Origin: Escherichia coli
GTDB taxonomy: Bacteria; Pseudomonadota; Gammaproteobacteria; Enterobacterales; Enterobacteriaceae
Assembly: GCF_003334765.1 (NCBI RefSeq)
Contig: NZ_QOWT01000022.1
Reading direction: 5' to 3' (one strand)
Length of the DNA stretch: 64,000 bases
A program made the position numbers and the translations under genes. Position 1 is the stretch's first letter, and each line of letters opens with the position of its first letter. Of this stretch, positions 3,853-10,096 are shown piece after piece. The notes under the pieces are model-generated. The model was not told the DNA's origin and did not search any database. It saw only the letters and a list, made by a program, of their open reading frames with translations.

Positions 3853-4659
3853 ATGAGTGTTATGAATCCAATAAGTTCTAATATATTTAATGCTGAATTT
3901 TTAAACACCCCGGCAGCGGCACTTGCCGCATGGATTTCCATTATTGGAGCTGTTATAACTTTGGTGACGATAGTTATAAGAGCACTATTCAAATATAGAA
4001 AATCTCATGATGTAATTTTGAAAAAATCAGGAATACCTGCGTTTATATTGAATTTTTTTCTTATACGAATATCATTAAAAAGGCTGCCTACTATCACATG
4101 GGCTGAAAAATCAATCACGGTTCTCTTTTCACTTCTTTTTTTGTGTGCAATTTATATTTTTGGTCCAGTTTTCATCCAAGCCATTAGAACCCCACCAAAT
4201 AGCACATTGCTTTATTGGATAAAATCCGGTGAATCATTTTATATGTCAAAAAAACTGGCGACTGCAGCTACAATATTAACCACTCCTGATTGGGAAATAT
4301 CAAAGGATGATTGCGAAGAGTCATCCTCTGCCAGTACAGAGAAGTACAAATCATTAACTATCGAACATAAAGAAATTCTTTGTAAACTACTAACCACTGA
4401 TGAAGGGAATGCTTACATTGATGAAGAAGTCAAGAATTTCGTTAAAGACAAATTCTTTATCTATTCCTTTGCCCCAACAACCATATTTATTCTATTATGG
4501 ATTTCTTTGGGTTTTATACTGACCATTCACTATTCTAAAAAAGTTAGGAAATATATTCTGACTGAACAAAAAAATGCAATTCATTGGGCATATGGTGAAT
4601 TCAAGACAGAAGGAATCTATTCAATATATCAAGAGTTAGAACGTAAGACTCACCATTAA
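3853..4659 (+). CDS. Hypothetical polytopic membrane protein (moron inserted between tail genes S and V)
   Basis: 268-aa ORF, strongly AT-rich unlike flanking tail genes; several hydrophobic segments (e.g. AALAAWISIIGAVITLVTIVI, ITVLFSLLFLCAIYIFGPVF, TTIFILLWISLGFILTI); no recognisable domain. Confidence 0.6.
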   Translation: MSVMNPISSNIFNAEFLNTPAAALAAWISIIGAVITLVTIVIRALFKYRKSHDVILKKSGIPAFILNFFLIRISLKRLPTITWAEKSITVLFSLLFLCAIYIFGPVFIQAIRTPPNSTLLYWIKSGESFYMSKKLATAATILTTPDWEISKDDCEESSSASTEKYKSLTIEHKEILCKLLTTDEGNAYIDEEVKNFVKDKFFIYSFAPTTIFILLWISLGFILTIHYSKKVRKYILTEQKNAIHWAYGEFKTEGIYSIYQELERKTHH

Positions 4660-5047: not shown

Positions 5048-5498
5048 GTTTCACCGTCCACATTTCTTCAGGTTCATCGGGTTCTGCTACCGCTTCAACG
5101 CTCGACACACTGCCGTCAGTGCTGACCAGCACACGTTCCGTCAGTTGCAGGTTAAGGCTGATATCACAGACATCGTTGCGCAGAATATCCACCTCAAAGG
5201 TAAATAGTTTTTCCCGTAACGCCGGGTTATTGATGGCATCGGGCTGGTTATCCCGCAGCCACAGCAAAACCGGGGCCATCAGCAGATTCTGGTCGCCGCT
5301 GAAATCCTCAATCACCACGTTCAGGGTGTAACCACGCAGCCCTACGAGTTCACTAAAGGCAGTATCTTTCACCTGATGGAGCCGGACCTGAACCAGGAAA
5401 TTTACGGCCTGCCGGAATATCTGTCCGCCATTCCGTCCGCCTTGCTGAACGAGTCCGCTACGCTGTTCCGGCGTAAATACTACATCAATGGCAGTCAT
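5040..5498 (-). CDS. Tail completion protein (P2 gpR-like); N-terminus possibly not native
   Basis: 152-aa ORF; C-terminal ~100 aa look gpR-like (YTLNVVIEDFSGD...LTERVLVS); N-terminal ~40 codons are antisense to the portal fragment. Confidence 0.65.
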   Translation of the reverse strand: MTAIDVVFTPEQRSGLVQQGGRNGGQIFRQAVNFLVQVRLHQVKDTAFSELVGLRGYTLNVVIEDFSGDQNLLMAPVLLWLRDNQPDAINNPALREKLFTFEVDILRNDVCDISLNLQLTERVLVSTDGSVSSVEAVAEPDEPEEMWTVKRG

Positions 5499-5906
5499 GC
5501 AGGGTTCATCATGTATATGACCGACGCCGCGCAGAACCAGGAGGACGTGAACAACATCCGCCAGGCCATGAAAAGCGCTAAAGGACCGGGCAACTTCCGC
5601 AACCTGTTTATGTATTCACCCAACGGCAAAAAGGACGGGATTCAGATAATCCCGCTGTCAGAGGTAGCGGCAAAGGATGAGTTTCTGAACATTAAGAACG
5701 TGAGCCGAGACGACATGATGGCTGCACACCGCGTTCCGCCGCAGATGATGGGGATTATGCCGAGTAATGTTGGGGGATTTGGGGATGTGGAAAAGGCGAG
5801 TAAGGTGTTTGTCCGTAACGAATTGATACCGCTGCAAAAGCGAATTAAAGAAATTAATGAATGGTTGAGTGATGAAATAATTTCTTTCCAACCATATGAA
5901 TTATAA
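5376..5906 (+). pseudogene. Portal protein fragment (P2 gpQ-like, C-terminal portion only)
   Basis: 176-aa ORF ending ...NVSRDDMMAAHRVPPQMMGIMP...; portal-like C-terminus, about half the expected length; directly abuts gpR on the opposite strand with no capsid, terminase or lysis genes between. Confidence 0.6.
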
Positions 5907-5907
5907 T

Positions 5908-5934
5908 AAAGTAGGGCAAATAATGCCCTACTTT
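5908..5934. terminator. Bidirectional stem-loop between convergent portal fragment and 285-aa cargo gene
   Basis: Perfect inverted repeat AAAGTAGGGC-(AAATAAT)-GCCCTACTTT flanked by A/T runs. Confidence 0.6.
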
Positions 5935-6785
5935 AACCAAATATTATAATCCAATCTTCCTACGTATCTTGAAAAAACAGCCAGAGCAATTGCTTGCCCT
6001 ACACTTGTTAATTCAATTCCTTGATAGTTGCTCTTTGAAAATTTTTCTAAAAATGCAGACACATGAGGGGCAACTAACTTAAGATTTGAAATATATGCAC
6101 TCTTATCTTTTATATCAGTCGGATATTTACTCATAAAATAGTCTTCAACATCCATCCCTAAAAAAGTATTCCATGAACAAGCCCCTGCATATTGAATGTG
6201 ATATATCTGGGCTTGAGACAAATTAAACCCATTAGTATACATTGATTCAAAGTTTCTAAAATTGTGCTCCAACAAATCCAATCGAACACCATTAACAGGG
6301 TCTTTGATCTCAACATTCTTGAGAAGAAAAACTATCGTTATAAGTGATATTTGTTGCTGTGTTAACTTGGGAACGACGGTAACTGCCTCCGTTAAAACTA
6401 TATCTCTAAAATCGTCATTGTTATTGGAGACTCGTTCAACTAACAACTGAGAAAGCACATCCATATTAGCTTTCTTTCCCTTCCTGGCTGATGACTTTAA
6501 TGCCTCAGTCAATGTAGCCTGAACGTCCGGATCGCAAAATTTATCAATAATCAATCTATCAACGTTTTTTGTTAAATCCGAAACGACACGCTCTTCAAAA
6601 TCTTTTGCATTCTCTTGAGCTGCAGCATAAGCAACATCTTTCAATTTTGGAAACTGATTTTCGAAGAGAATGTTGAATAGTTCTCTAACCTCGGAAAACG
6701 ACATCCCTGAAACATTTACATTATTTCCAGCTTGAATTGCATACGAATTATTACCTATTTGTTGCTTTTGCTTATCACTAAACAT
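5928..6785 (-). CDS. Hypothetical protein, 285 aa (AT-rich cargo, cos-proximal)
   Basis: Long ORF in AT-rich DNA; no domain recognised; N-terminal low-complexity motif IGNNSYAIQAGNNVNV. Confidence 0.65.
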   Translation of the reverse strand: MFSDKQKQQIGNNSYAIQAGNNVNVSGMSFSEVRELFNILFENQFPKLKDVAYAAAQENAKDFEERVVSDLTKNVDRLIIDKFCDPDVQATLTEALKSSARKGKKANMDVLSQLLVERVSNNNDDFRDIVLTEAVTVVPKLTQQQISLITIVFLLKNVEIKDPVNGVRLDLLEHNFRNFESMYTNGFNLSQAQIYHIQYAGACSWNTFLGMDVEDYFMSKYPTDIKDKSAYISNLKLVAPHVSAFLEKFSKSNYQGIELTSVGQAIALAVFSRYVGRLDYNIWLK

Positions 6786-6794
6786 ATATCCTCC

Positions 6795-7040
6795 TTATTT
6801 TTTATCACCTGTATTTATACAATCAATTTTAATATCACCTCTAGCCTGGACAGCAGTTGAATTATCACCAACTGATTGGCTCATAGAATTATATTTATTT
6901 TTTGTAGTGATAAGTAATCCAGCTAAAGCGCTAACTGCAGCCAAAAATGCAACAATAGAATCAAAACCAGGATCCATATAAAGCCATAATCCTGCAATCG
7001 ATGCCAGCATACATGTAATGACTATTGCAAAAATTTTCAT
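6795..7040 (-). CDS. Small membrane protein, 81 aa, two predicted TM helices; co-oriented 9 bp upstream of the 285-aa gene
   Basis: Hydrophobic segments IFAIVITCMLASIAGLWLY and IVAFLAAVSALAGLLIT; C-terminal tail VGDNSTAVQARGDIKI resembles the N-terminus of the downstream protein. Confidence 0.55.
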   Translation of the reverse strand: MKIFAIVITCMLASIAGLWLYMDPGFDSIVAFLAAVSALAGLLITTKNKYNSMSQSVGDNSTAVQARGDIKIDCINTGDKK

Positions 7041-7108
7041 AAATTCTCCTTCTAATGGAAGTGGTTATACCGAAAACAATTTCCTTTTACAACCACGCAC
7101 AGCGCGCG

Positions 7109-7127
7109 CTCGTATCCCCGCCACGCC
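7109..7127 (-). other. cos-like site (P2/186-type cohesive-end sequence)
   Basis: Minus strand reads GGCGTGGCGGGGATACGAG, close to the P2/186 cos overhang as I recall it (GGCG[A/T]GGCGGGGAAAGCA-); sits in a GC-rich island inside AT-rich DNA. Confidence 0.45.
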
Positions 7128-7345
7128 TGCCCGCTTTGTGTAGTGGTTTTCATGCACCTGCATGACATAAGTAAAAGCCCGCCAGAACTGGCGGGACTGA
7201 GCAAAAACGATCCTTTTGCGATCATTCATTTTCATGCGCTATAGTCATGCAACAAACGCATACGAACCATATGGTTAGATTACTCATCAAGTCAGATGGA
7301 TTTTCAGGCAGATTGCCACAGCAATTGTAAAGGAGCGAGATTGAA

Positions 7346-8347
7346 ATGGGTGGAGAGACTTCGGCTATACAACGAGTCGCGGGTAAGATTTCTGATGATA
7401 TTTTCTCAGTGTTCAAATGGGATCGTGCCGCTAGAGCGGACATGAATTGGGATTGTTGCCAAGAGGCTCATTCCAAGAAAACACATCCAAGCGATGTTGT
7501 ATTTTTCTACATAGATCCATATGAGGAGGAAATGGTCTATCTCAACACAGACCTCAAAAGCTATGCAGAAGGTACTATTGGGAAAAAAATAGTCGAGGGA
7601 GCTTTAACATCGCTTGCTTTAGCTACCGAGTGTGCAAATGTCAGTGAAGAATGGCGATTGAAATATGTTCATGATGATTCTTTAGGTTATAACGTAAGAG
7701 GGTTATTATTCTTATATAACCATGATAATTTATATGATAAAGACTTCTATGAGAATATTACAAAAAAATTAGATCACTCATCTATAAATTGCCCTCCAAA
7801 CATCAAACTACATTTGCTTGACCCTTATAAAATATCAGATTTGATAAACATATCTTCTGACATAACTAAGTTAATTGGTTCAGGCAAACTTCCTCAACCT
7901 GATAAGTTCACATATTATTATCCAGATCTTTCCCTAACAAGAATAAAGCACCCTATTAATCAGACAACACCTGCAACAATTGAATTATTAACATCACCAT
8001 ACATTATAATAAAGCATGAGGCTTTCAGTTGGCTCAGGGATAAAAACCCTGAGGGATATGTTGTTTATTACAATCAACCGGGGGATTCAGTAGACGAATT
8101 CGTTTACTTCTTTGATATGTTATCAACTTATCAGATATTAACCGAAGGTAAACCAATCGTATTACGCCATTGTCACATTCACCCAAATGAAAATGCCATT
8201 CATCATTTTGAAAGAGCGAAAAAGAAATACAGCACAGACTGGCTCTTAGGCGAGGATGAAAGACTTTTTCTTAAAATTGACTTCGACAAGACAGACAAAA
8301 TTGTTGTTGAATATAATCTTGAACAAATCGGCATGGAGCAACGATAA
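7346..8347 (+). CDS. Hypothetical protein A, 333 aa (first gene of three-gene cargo operon)
   Basis: ORF with AGGAG-like RBS ~10 nt upstream; AT-rich; stop overlaps next start (TAATG); no Walker A, RT or TIR motif seen. Confidence 0.7.
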   Translation: MGGETSAIQRVAGKISDDIFSVFKWDRAARADMNWDCCQEAHSKKTHPSDVVFFYIDPYEEEMVYLNTDLKSYAEGTIGKKIVEGALTSLALATECANVSEEWRLKYVHDDSLGYNVRGLLFLYNHDNLYDKDFYENITKKLDHSSINCPPNIKLHLLDPYKISDLINISSDITKLIGSGKLPQPDKFTYYYPDLSLTRIKHPINQTTPATIELLTSPYIIIKHEAFSWLRDKNPEGYVVYYNQPGDSVDEFVYFFDMLSTYQILTEGKPIVLRHCHIHPNENAIHHFERAKKKYSTDWLLGEDERLFLKIDFDKTDKIVVEYNLEQIGMEQR

Positions 8348-9426
8348 TGGCTAAAAAACTATATTTCGCAACTGATAAAAATATTTATGATGCATTACAT
8401 CATAAAAGGATAACCGCTGCAAAGTTGCATGAATTATTGTTGAATCGAGGTGTGTTTTTATCACCAGAACTCGACAAGGAAATACTAATCGAGGAAATAT
8501 CCAAACTTCCTCACGGATTTAATGAATTAGAACACATAAAAAAACTGGTCAAAACATATGACCCAAGGGAAAGCACTACTAGTGTGAGCTTCCAAACCTC
8601 AACAAATCAGGCCGAATTAAAAAGTGCTGCTGAAGCACTAAAAAAAACATGCTCCCCTAGTAAAGGTCAAAGCCTGAATATTGTAGCTAAAAAAGATGGC
8701 TCGCTTACAGTAGAATACAAATATGAAGAAATAGACCTGTCTAAAACTGCATTACGTCAGATCGACAAGCGGAATGTTATAATAGAACTTCGCCCTGGAG
8801 CTGACAAAGTTGAAGTACGTATGCCTCAAAACCCCGAGGCAAAAAAAGTTATTGAGAGCTTGCAAAACGAGCTATCTAAAATCAAGTCCGAACCTATCGA
8901 GCGCTTCGAAATATCATTACTAGCAATAACTGATCCTACATTGCGAAGTCAGTTTTTTCAGGAATTAATGAATGGTCTACGCGGTTATGAGACTGATGAC
9001 GTAACAAAAGTCGAATTAAATCGCAGTACTGATGCTAGTGAGGATGAAGACAAGGAAGAAACTATTGATACCGGATTTGTTAAGAAAGCCGTCCTTAATG
9101 GTGAAGGGGTAAATAGTTCAGCTATATTTTCTCAACTACATGAGAAAGGTTATTATATCGGGCGTATTGCATGGTCTTCAAAGCCGACAAGTGGAATTGG
9201 AGACAGAATCAACGTCGAAGCATTTTTCAAAGACTCAGAAAAATGCTGTGACTTTGCCTATCAAATTAAAGGTATAAACAATCAAAAAGAAGACGGTTTC
9301 AATGTAACCATTCGCGCGGCAACGGCACAAGAGAAAAAACATATTAGTGAATTAATTGAGTCCGCCGCTGAAAATGCCTATAATATAATAATAGGATCAG
9401 AGGTGAACGAAGATGAAAAAGGTTAA
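8347..9426 (+). CDS. Hypothetical protein B, 359 aa (second gene of three-gene cargo operon)
   Basis: ORF coupled to gene A by a 1-nt overlap and to gene C by a 14-nt overlap; acidic stretch DASEDEDKEE; no recognisable domain. Confidence 0.7.
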   Translation: MAKKLYFATDKNIYDALHHKRITAAKLHELLLNRGVFLSPELDKEILIEEISKLPHGFNELEHIKKLVKTYDPRESTTSVSFQTSTNQAELKSAAEALKKTCSPSKGQSLNIVAKKDGSLTVEYKYEEIDLSKTALRQIDKRNVIIELRPGADKVEVRMPQNPEAKKVIESLQNELSKIKSEPIERFEISLLAITDPTLRSQFFQELMNGLRGYETDDVTKVELNRSTDASEDEDKEETIDTGFVKKAVLNGEGVNSSAIFSQLHEKGYYIGRIAWSSKPTSGIGDRINVEAFFKDSEKCCDFAYQIKGINNQKEDGFNVTIRAATAQEKKHISELIESAAENAYNIIIGSEVNEDEKG

Positions 9427-10096
9427 ATGGCTTAAGTTAAACATACGGCTTGAGTTTGAAACAGCCGTTAGACGTCTTTCTCTTGATTCTTTTACAGAGG
9501 ATAAAGGGAAAGGGTTCATTTTTGATAAAATACGCCATGATTTTGCAAATGGTCGCTTTGTCGAGCGTATTGTTTATCATGATAAAATATTAAGCTTTGA
9601 CGGAAGCGAAACTACCGTTGAAAGAATCGAATATCGCACCACAAATTTTAGCGTGGCTTTAGACTCTCTTCCTGTAATGCAGATTACTAACCCACCCAGA
9701 ACTTTAAAGCCTTTTTCGCAGGCTTTGGTAAAAAATCTTGGCTTAGGTGTTAGTTTGGAAGAAATTGACATAAACCCTATAGACTGGCTTAATGAAATAT
9801 CTTCAAGTGTAAATATCAATTTAACACAACTTGATATTTCAAGGGTTAGAGTTTCTGATTACGCCACAGCTAAAATGCAAATAATTGGCAGCAATGATCT
9901 TAGGAAGTATTATAAAGAAGAATTAGAGGGTAAAAAAATAAGAATTGACAGGCTTGTTTGCTCTGTTAATTCATTAGAATATTCCGGTAAGCTCAAGATC
10001 ACCAATAGCGGCCTTGCTTATATTGATGTTAGAAATGAGAATGAGTTTACGAAAATCGTTTTTGATACGTTAAAAAAAGTCACCCTTCAATCATAG
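9413..10096 (+). CDS. Hypothetical protein C, 227 aa (third gene of three-gene cargo operon)
   Basis: ORF starting inside the end of gene B; followed by a strong hairpin; no recognisable domain. Confidence 0.65.
   Translation: MKKVKWLKLNIRLEFETAVRRLSLDSFTEDKGKGFIFDKIRHDFANGRFVERIVYHDKILSFDGSETTVERIEYRTTNFSVALDSLPVMQITNPPRTLKPFSQALVKNLGLGVSLEEIDINPIDWLNEISSSVNINLTQLDISRVRVSDYATAKMQIIGSNDLRKYYKEELEGKKIRIDRLVCSVNSLEYSGKLKITNSGLAYIDVRNENEFTKIVFDTLKKVTLQS

Follow-up and report, generated by a model that had tools for sequence, protein, structure and literature searches.

In a P2-like prophage of Escherichia coli we identified a two-gene cargo cassette encoding a small membrane protein and a 285-amino-acid protein, which carry the same peptide motif, the former in its C-terminal tail and the latter at its N-terminus. 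We propose that the pair may form an abortive-infection or exclusion module coupled through this motif, and hold this view with about even confidence. The stretch of DNA analysed, here called the window, comprises 64,000 nucleotides of contig NZ_QOWT01000022.1 (RefSeq assembly GCF_003334765.1). Both genes lie on its minus strand, first the open reading frame (ORF) at 6795-7040 (81 amino acids) and then that at 5928-6785 (285 amino acids), with an intergenic gap of 9 bp. The elements on which the proposal depends are the following.

6795-7040, minus strand: gene for the 81-residue protein, a predicted two-transmembrane hairpin with a cytoplasmic C-terminal tail; proposed anchor or effector
6978-7037, minus strand: predicted transmembrane helix 1, residues 2-21 of the 81-residue protein
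6906-6959, minus strand: predicted transmembrane helix 2, residues 28-45 of the 81-residue protein, following a conserved P-G-F-D-S turn
6822-6884, minus strand: shared motif at the C-terminus of the anchor, residues 53-73, MSQSVGDNSTAVQARGDIKID
5928-6785, minus strand: gene for the 285-residue protein, LPO_1073/Vpar_1526 family, Abi_alpha-like and all-alpha; proposed sensor or trigger
6708-6770, minus strand: shared motif at the N-terminus of the large protein, residues 6-26, QKQQIGNNSYAIQAGNNVNVS; disordered in the monomer model

A motif of about 21 residues, rich in Q, G, N and S and with alternating hydrophobic positions, recurs in the anchor's cytoplasmic tail and at the large protein's N-terminus. 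Its consensus is Q-x-Q-x-[V/I/A]-x-x-x-[S/G]-x-[G/A]-[I/V/L]-Q-A-G-[R/G/N]-[D/N]-[V/I/A]-x-[V/I/Y]. A hidden Markov model (HMM) built from 17 large-protein N-termini alone retrieved every anchor tail from 5,856 six-frame ORF segments, with E values of 2.5e-8 to 0.2. The best unrelated ORF scored E 3.7, and the sole additional hit was a tandem paralogue of the large gene (locus L023, below). Reciprocally, an HMM of the small family matched the large proteins at residues ~6-30. Among all ORFs of the loci examined, the motif is confined to the anchor and large-protein families. The first-pass annotation of this locus, made from the sequence alone, had missed the motif.

The two genes also travel together. 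The small gene lies directly upstream of the large gene in 24/24 distinct loci with upstream sequence, at a gap of -14 to +14 nt. The loci come from E. coli (two alleles), Klebsiella, Comamonas and Burkholderia; from 13 genomes of Beta-, Gamma-, Alpha- and Deltaproteobacteria, Chlorobiaceae and Brocadiaceae; and from Arthrobacter (Actinobacteria), where the anchor is a one-transmembrane version, Vibrio, a metagenomic chromosome and three further viral contigs. All counts of homologues and loci given here are lower bounds, as the searches were seeded with exact words. This distribution across phyla disposes of the possibility, raised in the first-pass annotation, that the pair never co-occurs outside this strain, and we likewise rejected the idea that the two are chance ORFs, because their conservation as a pair extends across phyla. 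For three divergent small proteins that were looked up, a Vpar_1526 relative is the next gene in two, the exception being P0172. We rejected a role of the motif as a broadly shared adaptor because the divergent small proteins, too, have only Vpar_1526 relatives as partners. The pair is under-annotated, as its small gene often escapes gene callers: public annotations omit that gene in Burkholderia (L010-L013, ~7760-7992) and in the metagenomic chromosome (L036, 8741-9004), even though an intact ORF with an intact motif is there. In a Burkholderiaceae genome or viral contig (L023, 8964-9893; L051, 2441-3370), the pair is immediately followed by a tandem paralogue of the large gene, which keeps the N-terminal motif.

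Many of these loci are on mobile elements or beside defence genes. The gpQ-proximal slot is occupied by divergent alleles (39-42% identity) in at least three other P2-like phages. Elsewhere the pair separates the terminase genes from RusA in an HK97-type prophage; it also lies in a conjugative element, between the relaxase RlxS and TraG, and in a Vibrio aestuarianus cassette array with the toxin-antitoxin genes ParE/Phd and HipA. At further loci it stands beside a reverse transcriptase and AAA_15, a DUF262-like protein, or a type II restriction endonuclease. Within E. coli, it is rare, being present in 6 of 5,426 complete genomes.

The 285-amino-acid product, in which no motif had been recognized initially, is a full-length member of NF045477 and PF28206. 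Its match to the NF045477 profile has an E value of 3e-72 and a score of 243.4 bits, the cutoff being 45 (residues 27-284; profile positions 1-257 of 257). RefSeq names the gene as LPO_1073/Vpar_1526 family, homologues are annotated with PF28206 in precomputed records, and the protein also matches phrog_19542. Outside a cluster of near-identical sequences from E. coli and Salmonella, the closest relatives share ~43% identity, and relatives are found in Klebsiella, Vibrio, Photobacterium, Pseudoalteromonas, Comamonas, Burkholderia, Kuenenia and many metagenomes. Conservation across the family alignment is strong (64% mean column identity) and includes blocks such as DPDVQAAINDAVQASARKG, SEAVxVVPKLT and LTSVGQAIAIA, and we saw no recognizable catalytic motif in it. 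The AlphaFold2 (AF2) model of the protein is all-alpha, with a predicted local distance difference test score (pLDDT) of 81, and had no match among solved folds in a structure comparison. NTPase, TPR and PIN domains were not found, and Pfam-A returned only T4_Cef and CBM64, both insignificant. We rejected a packaging or structural role, which the first-pass annotation had considered as an alternative, because homologues are found outside phages.

A relationship of the 285-amino-acid protein to the Abi_alpha proteins is suggested by structure. In Foldseek searches of AFDB50, the nearest neighbours outside the family are named DUF4393 (E 8e-14 to 5e-10, TM score 0.68-0.83, 22-26% identity). These neighbours, together with the label Abi_alpha that the protein received in the hotspot survey of Rousset et al. 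(2022), give indirect support to the likeness to abortive-infection modules proposed in the first-pass annotation. The kinship rests on Foldseek and on that label because HMMER does not join the families: with PF14337 (DUF4393/Abi_alpha), the window protein gave no hit at E<=10, and two sets of 26 and 7 family members gave none at E<=0.1. No Abi-related PHROG was found. An hhalign comparison with one phiNM1 protein, merely guessed to be a DUF4393 member, was negative; among the phiNM1 genes guessed to be DUF4393, gp03 had no Pfam match, gp14 is AAA_24 and the identity of gp17 is unconfirmed. A search seeded with a divergent 357-amino-acid relative returned two proteins.

The 81-amino-acid protein has the two hydrophobic helices that had been noticed at first, at residues 2-21 and 28-45, with a DPGFDS turn between them and basic residues at both ends. 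As the basic residues stand at the N-terminus and after helix 2, both ends are probably cytoplasmic. In an AF2 model of a fusion of the two proteins, the helices span residues 2-22 and 26-43 at pLDDT 77-90. The protein matches phrog_27656, and Pfam-A yielded nothing useful for it. A profile of the small family collected 632 representatives at 50% identity, 275 of them with E<=1e-10, nearly all of 74-104 amino acids. Two variant partners deviate from the common form. P0172 has a C-terminal extension of ~100 amino acids and lacks a Vpar_1526 neighbour. P0243 has two pseudo-repeats in its tail (GNVNIGNFGH and GDVNTGNLGH), in which it resembles some amyloid-signalling effectors, whose tails are also repeated.

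The cassette has its own expression signals, which are listed here with its boundaries.

5907-5935, strand not applicable: hairpin that separates the portal remnant from the 285-residue gene and bounds the AT-rich cassette on the left
6790-6794, minus strand: Shine-Dalgarno sequence GGAGG of the 285-residue gene, within the 9-bp gap, as read from the sequence
7046-7050, minus strand: Shine-Dalgarno sequence AGGAG of the 81-residue gene, as read from the sequence
7064-7092, minus strand: possible sigma-70 promoter, TTGTAA-17 nt-TATAAC, found by eye at the right edge of the cassette
7109-7127, minus strand: cos-like core, GGCGTGGCGGGGATACGAG, at the cassette boundary and outside the cassette

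The GC content is 0.34-0.37 over 5751-7000, compared with ~0.54 in the adjoining phage genes. The perfect hairpin at 5907-5935 has a stem of 12 bp and a loop of 5 nt and is followed by a T-rich tail. It overlaps the stop codon of the 285-amino-acid ORF and begins 1 nt past the stop of the convergent portal ORF, and is likely, from its sequence, a bidirectional intrinsic terminator. The position of GGAGG in the 9-bp gap suggests translational coupling or an operon. A scan for consensus promoters did not report the candidate at 7064-7092, because its -10 element lacks the final T. The first-pass description of two co-oriented, AT-rich minus-strand ORFs 9 bp apart, ending at a perfect hairpin terminator and wedged between a cos-like site and a portal fragment, was confirmed in each of these points. 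Overall, the observations support an AT-rich cargo unit of 1.2 kb with its own ribosome-binding sites and terminator.

The portal ORF at 5376-5906 (plus strand) is a fragment that matches positions 139-316 of 320 of TIGR01540. The window prophage is ~7 kb shorter than the intact copy in NZ_CP148585; the deletion removed the genes for lysis, capsid and terminase together with the N-terminal half of the portal, of which only the C-terminal 176 residues remain. The deletion joint is an 8-bp overlap at 5325-5332, where the side of tail gene R is fused to the middle of the portal gene. Both cargo cassettes of the prophage survive this deletion intact. The only part of 5900-7250 that is common to the P2-like phages of Klebsiella, Salmonella and Yersinia is a block at 7091-7250. 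Its minus strand carries AAGCGGGCAGGCGTGGCGGGGA at 7109-7134, a string that is also present in the cos-containing P4-like clones of Rousset et al. (Table S2A), and from this sequence match the predicted cos-like site is real. As the conserved block carries the cos string, the cassette (5907 to ~7090) lies between cos and gpQ. The gpA-gpQ interval around cos in P2-like phages is a hotspot of anti-phage systems (Rousset et al. 2022), and the arrangement in the window, with variable genes between replication gene A and portal gene Q beside cos, is that of hotspot cargo, as the first-pass annotation had supposed in calling the pair phage cargo. The same block contains a GC-rich hairpin with a T run at 7178-7195 (minus strand, CCCGCCAGTTCTGGCGGG CTTTTAC), next to cos and upstream of the possible promoter.

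On the other side of cos, three plus-strand genes at 7346-10096 match PADLOC Hp1, Hp2 and Hp3 end to end (E 1e-157 to 1e-248). The N-terminal sequences of the first two proteins recur among the tested systems in Table S2 of Rousset et al., and we therefore identify the locus as their validated three-gene anti-P1 system. Hp2 also has a weak NCBIfam match to GapS4b (2e-5), far below cutoff. In E. coli PEC422 the pair is present and the other side of cos is filled by different genes; the pair is therefore an independent unit. Between the P2 tail genes V and S, at 3853-4659 (plus strand), the prophage has another AT-rich insertion (GC 0.32-0.33), which encodes a 268-amino-acid protein with hydrophobic segments that RefSeq names DUF6216 family protein. 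PADLOC, NCBIfam and PHROG all gave no match for this protein, and the insertion is missing from the PEC422 prophage.

The prophage region is 100% identical to a P2-like prophage in E. coli H3 and two South Korean isolates, beside rcdA/ybjJ. A search of a plasmid collection found the pair in just two E. coli "plasmid" records. NZ_CP148585.1 and NZ_CP148400.1 are 55-kb E. coli records of this kind that hold the prophage plus rcdA and ybjJ, and are probably chromosomal contigs because these genes are on board.

The cassette is not new as cargo, having been catalogued before. The exact protein pair is system #141 of the P2 hotspot, "DUF6358 | Abi_alpha", with 14 occurrences and the remark "2 TM in protein 1" (Rousset et al. 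2022, Table S5B; domains there were identified by HHpred/HH-suite). System #141 is absent from that study's list of cloned and tested systems (Table S2). Besides this study, the literature on LPO_1073/Vpar_1526 yielded only a Veillonella membrane-fraction proteome list with Vpar_1526. The cassette, the hotspot and a named large-protein family, probably related to an abortive-infection protein, are thus already known. New, as far as our searches reach, are the obligatory two-transmembrane partner across phyla, the shared motif and the mechanistic hypothesis that results from them.

Our proposal for how the pair may act is as follows. The 81-amino-acid protein would form a two-helix hairpin in the inner membrane, its tail of ~35 residues reaching into the cytoplasm, while the 285-amino-acid Abi_alpha-like protein would be cytoplasmic and would sense the infecting phage. 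The shared motif would couple the anchor and the large protein by beta-strand pairing. Once a phage is detected, the large protein would change state or oligomerise, and its N-terminal motifs would then recruit or template the anchor tails. The two-transmembrane hairpins would cluster and the membrane would be breached or depolarised, leading to cell death or early lysis and a collapse of phage yield. By analogy with the Bab/Agp and RexAB pairs, the membrane protein may be the effector and the 285-amino-acid protein the sensor. The first-pass annotation had read the cassette as a membrane component plus an effector: a membrane protein is indeed accompanied by a larger soluble protein, but the roles may be the reverse of those it assigned.

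The nearest putative relative that has been characterized is Abi-alpha (EF2833), a single gene of 272 amino acids from prophage 6 of E. faecalis V583, on which PF14337 is founded. In its presence adsorption is intact, the efficiency of centre of infection (ECOI) is lowered, infected cells are killed and lysis occurs ~10 min early; this early lysis, by analogy, fits a membrane end-point for the window pair. Like Abi-alpha, the window protein is prophage-borne cargo of ~270-285 amino acids lacking an enzymatic motif, and it is linked to that protein by its DUF4393-named structural neighbours and its published label. However, NCBI and Pfam hold the two as separate families (NF045477 and PF28206 versus PF14337), Abi-alpha acts as a single gene, and neither a membrane partner nor a shared terminal motif has been described for it.

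The closest parallel to the arrangement of the motif is Bab/Agp (BASS11), an abortive-infection pair from a prophage of E. coli ECOR25 in which the C-terminus of the effector and the N-terminus of the sensor share an amyloid motif. In BASS pairs, including Bab/Agp, the partner templates the amyloid fold in the effector tail. The window pair resembles Bab/Agp in its adjacent collinear genes within a prophage defence island and in a ~20-25-residue, G/N/Q-rich motif placed at the C-terminus of a small membrane-targeting protein and the N-terminus of the next protein, the position that is characteristic of amyloid pairs. It differs from Bab/Agp and from HET-S/NWD2 in that the putative effector is a constitutive two-transmembrane hairpin rather than a soluble Bell/HeLo-type domain, and the partner is neither an NLR nor a TGP protein. 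The window motif is also apparently limited to one family pair, whereas BASS11 is common to TIR, CHAT and NACHT proteins. Of the described amyloid motifs, the one compared was RHIM/BASS3, and the Pfam RHIM model gave no hit to either family. The core [I/V/L]-Q-A-G nevertheless agrees with the tetrad V/I-Q-V/I-G of RHIM, BASS3 and PP at 3/4 positions, with Ala instead of Val/Ile at the third; it is preceded by S-x-[G/A] and followed by [D/N]-hydrophobic-x-hydrophobic. This resemblance in sequence may be convergent.

Prophage cargo that combines a cytoplasmic and a membrane component is also seen in lambda RexA/RexB and in transmembrane systems of the P2/P4 hotspots (TIR with transmembrane proteins, phage AC1). 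RexB is a four-transmembrane channel. The membrane proteins of such prophage pairs are regarded as the cell-killing effectors. These pairs are unrelated to the window pair in sequence and fold, and coupling by a shared terminal peptide is not known for them.

If the pair does act in abortive infection or exclusion, we are evenly divided over whether its motif is amyloid-like or makes a simple 1:1 beta-strand contact. One far-reaching version is that the pair represents a new and widespread amyloid-like signalling motif with a RHIM-like core [I/V]-Q-A-G, joining a non-NLR, Abi-alpha-type sensor to a bare two-transmembrane hairpin effector, such that stacked tails would align the hairpins into a membrane lesion. 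This version is tentative, and we judge it rather unlikely.

Several results weigh against a coupled abortive-infection or exclusion module. No phenotype is on record for any member of the LPO_1073/Vpar_1526 family, and PADLOC-DB v2 matched neither protein with any of its families at E<=0.01. The Abi_alpha link was not reproduced by HMMER (Pfam, PHROGs) or by hhalign. The large protein was not found by tblastn in 50,697 phage records, and several loci lie among housekeeping genes (miaA, SbcC, GST/MarR). As for contact through the motif, the residue after QAG is concordant in 18/21 pairs (10 R/R, 8 G with G or N; 3 discordant), a pattern that fits co-evolution but is confounded by shared descent. 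AlphaFold, given an artificial anchor-GS10-large fusion and a paired alignment of 16 rows, predicted three short strands per motif in the same register, at a weak pLDDT of only ~50. Finally, the small gene of the window has T62, A63 and R67 where the family consensus, PEC422 and four IMG/VR contigs have I, G and G (codons 62-67, 6840-6857). Between the window allele and the PEC422-type allele, 5/7 nucleotide differences in the small gene are non-synonymous, while 20 nucleotide differences in the large gene entail 5 amino-acid changes. Judging by conservation, the change of the nearly invariant QAG glycine to arginine might alter or reduce the activity of the window allele.

Four other explanations were weighed. 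The pair may mediate superinfection exclusion with no cell death, the anchor holding the 285-amino-acid protein at the inner membrane, where DNA entry or early steps would be blocked, those of P2 relatives included. In favour of this, a prophage carries the module, the membrane anchors it, and its own ribosome-binding sites and terminator give it a constitutive look; the P2 hotspot is known for the exclusion genes old and tin, and the presence of Vpar_1526 in the Veillonella membrane fraction is consistent with such an anchoring. However, Abi-alpha kills infected cells and leaves adsorption unblocked, and blocking of phage entry is less obvious for pairs on an integrative and conjugative element, in a cassette array or at plain chromosomal sites. 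We regard exclusion of this kind as fairly improbable.

A toxin-antitoxin or addiction module, in which the 285-amino-acid protein would restrain a two-transmembrane membrane toxin through the shared motif and so stabilise the carrier element, has a low probability in our estimation. The strict two-gene operon on prophages, an integrative and conjugative element and a Vibrio array rich in toxin-antitoxin genes (PhdYeFM/ParE, HipA) would agree with it, as would the small size and hydrophobicity of the anchor. Yet a small membrane gene in first place and a strongly conserved partner of 285 amino acids are unusual for an antitoxin, and the module persists in a defective prophage and at chromosomal sites, where addiction would be purposeless. 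Toxin-antitoxin function and abortive infection are, moreover, not mutually exclusive.

The motif could also be a common tag that lets a host protease, a chaperone, a phage protein or another third party regulate both proteins. Its terminal position and predicted disorder in the monomer would suit a tag, as would the failure of AlphaFold to pair the two copies confidently. Among the ORFs of the loci examined it is limited to these two families, its variable positions change in step in the two partners, and its placement follows the rule of C-terminus and next-gene N-terminus of known homotypic signalling pairs, all of which speaks against a tag; we assign this explanation, too, only a low probability. 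A lysis-timing accessory, in which the large protein would regulate a two-transmembrane factor resembling a class II holin or an antiholin, is very improbable, for although the anchor resembles class II holins in its ~80 residues, two transmembrane helices and charged C-terminal tail, and Abi-alpha shifts lysis timing, P2-like phages, the intact prophage among them, already encode holin, lysozyme and LysA/B/C in a complete lysis cassette at another site, to which the pair does not belong, and the pair is missing from most P2-like phages (6/5,426 E. coli genomes) and present in non-phage settings.

Returning to the proposed module coupled through the shared motif, the two natural alleles that differ in the motif core make the cassette convenient for study. 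Abi-alpha is a validated abortive-infection family, and a putative branch with an obligatory membrane partner and a candidate coupling element hints at where and how the family may act. If the motif is amyloid-like, the pair would offer the first mechanistic handle on the Abi-alpha superfamily. Immune signalling mediated by such motifs has so far been described in fungi, in filamentous bacteria and in one E. coli system; if the motif of the window pair is homotypic or amyloid-like, signalling of this type would reach many unicellular Proteobacteria and would extend to a minimal effector.

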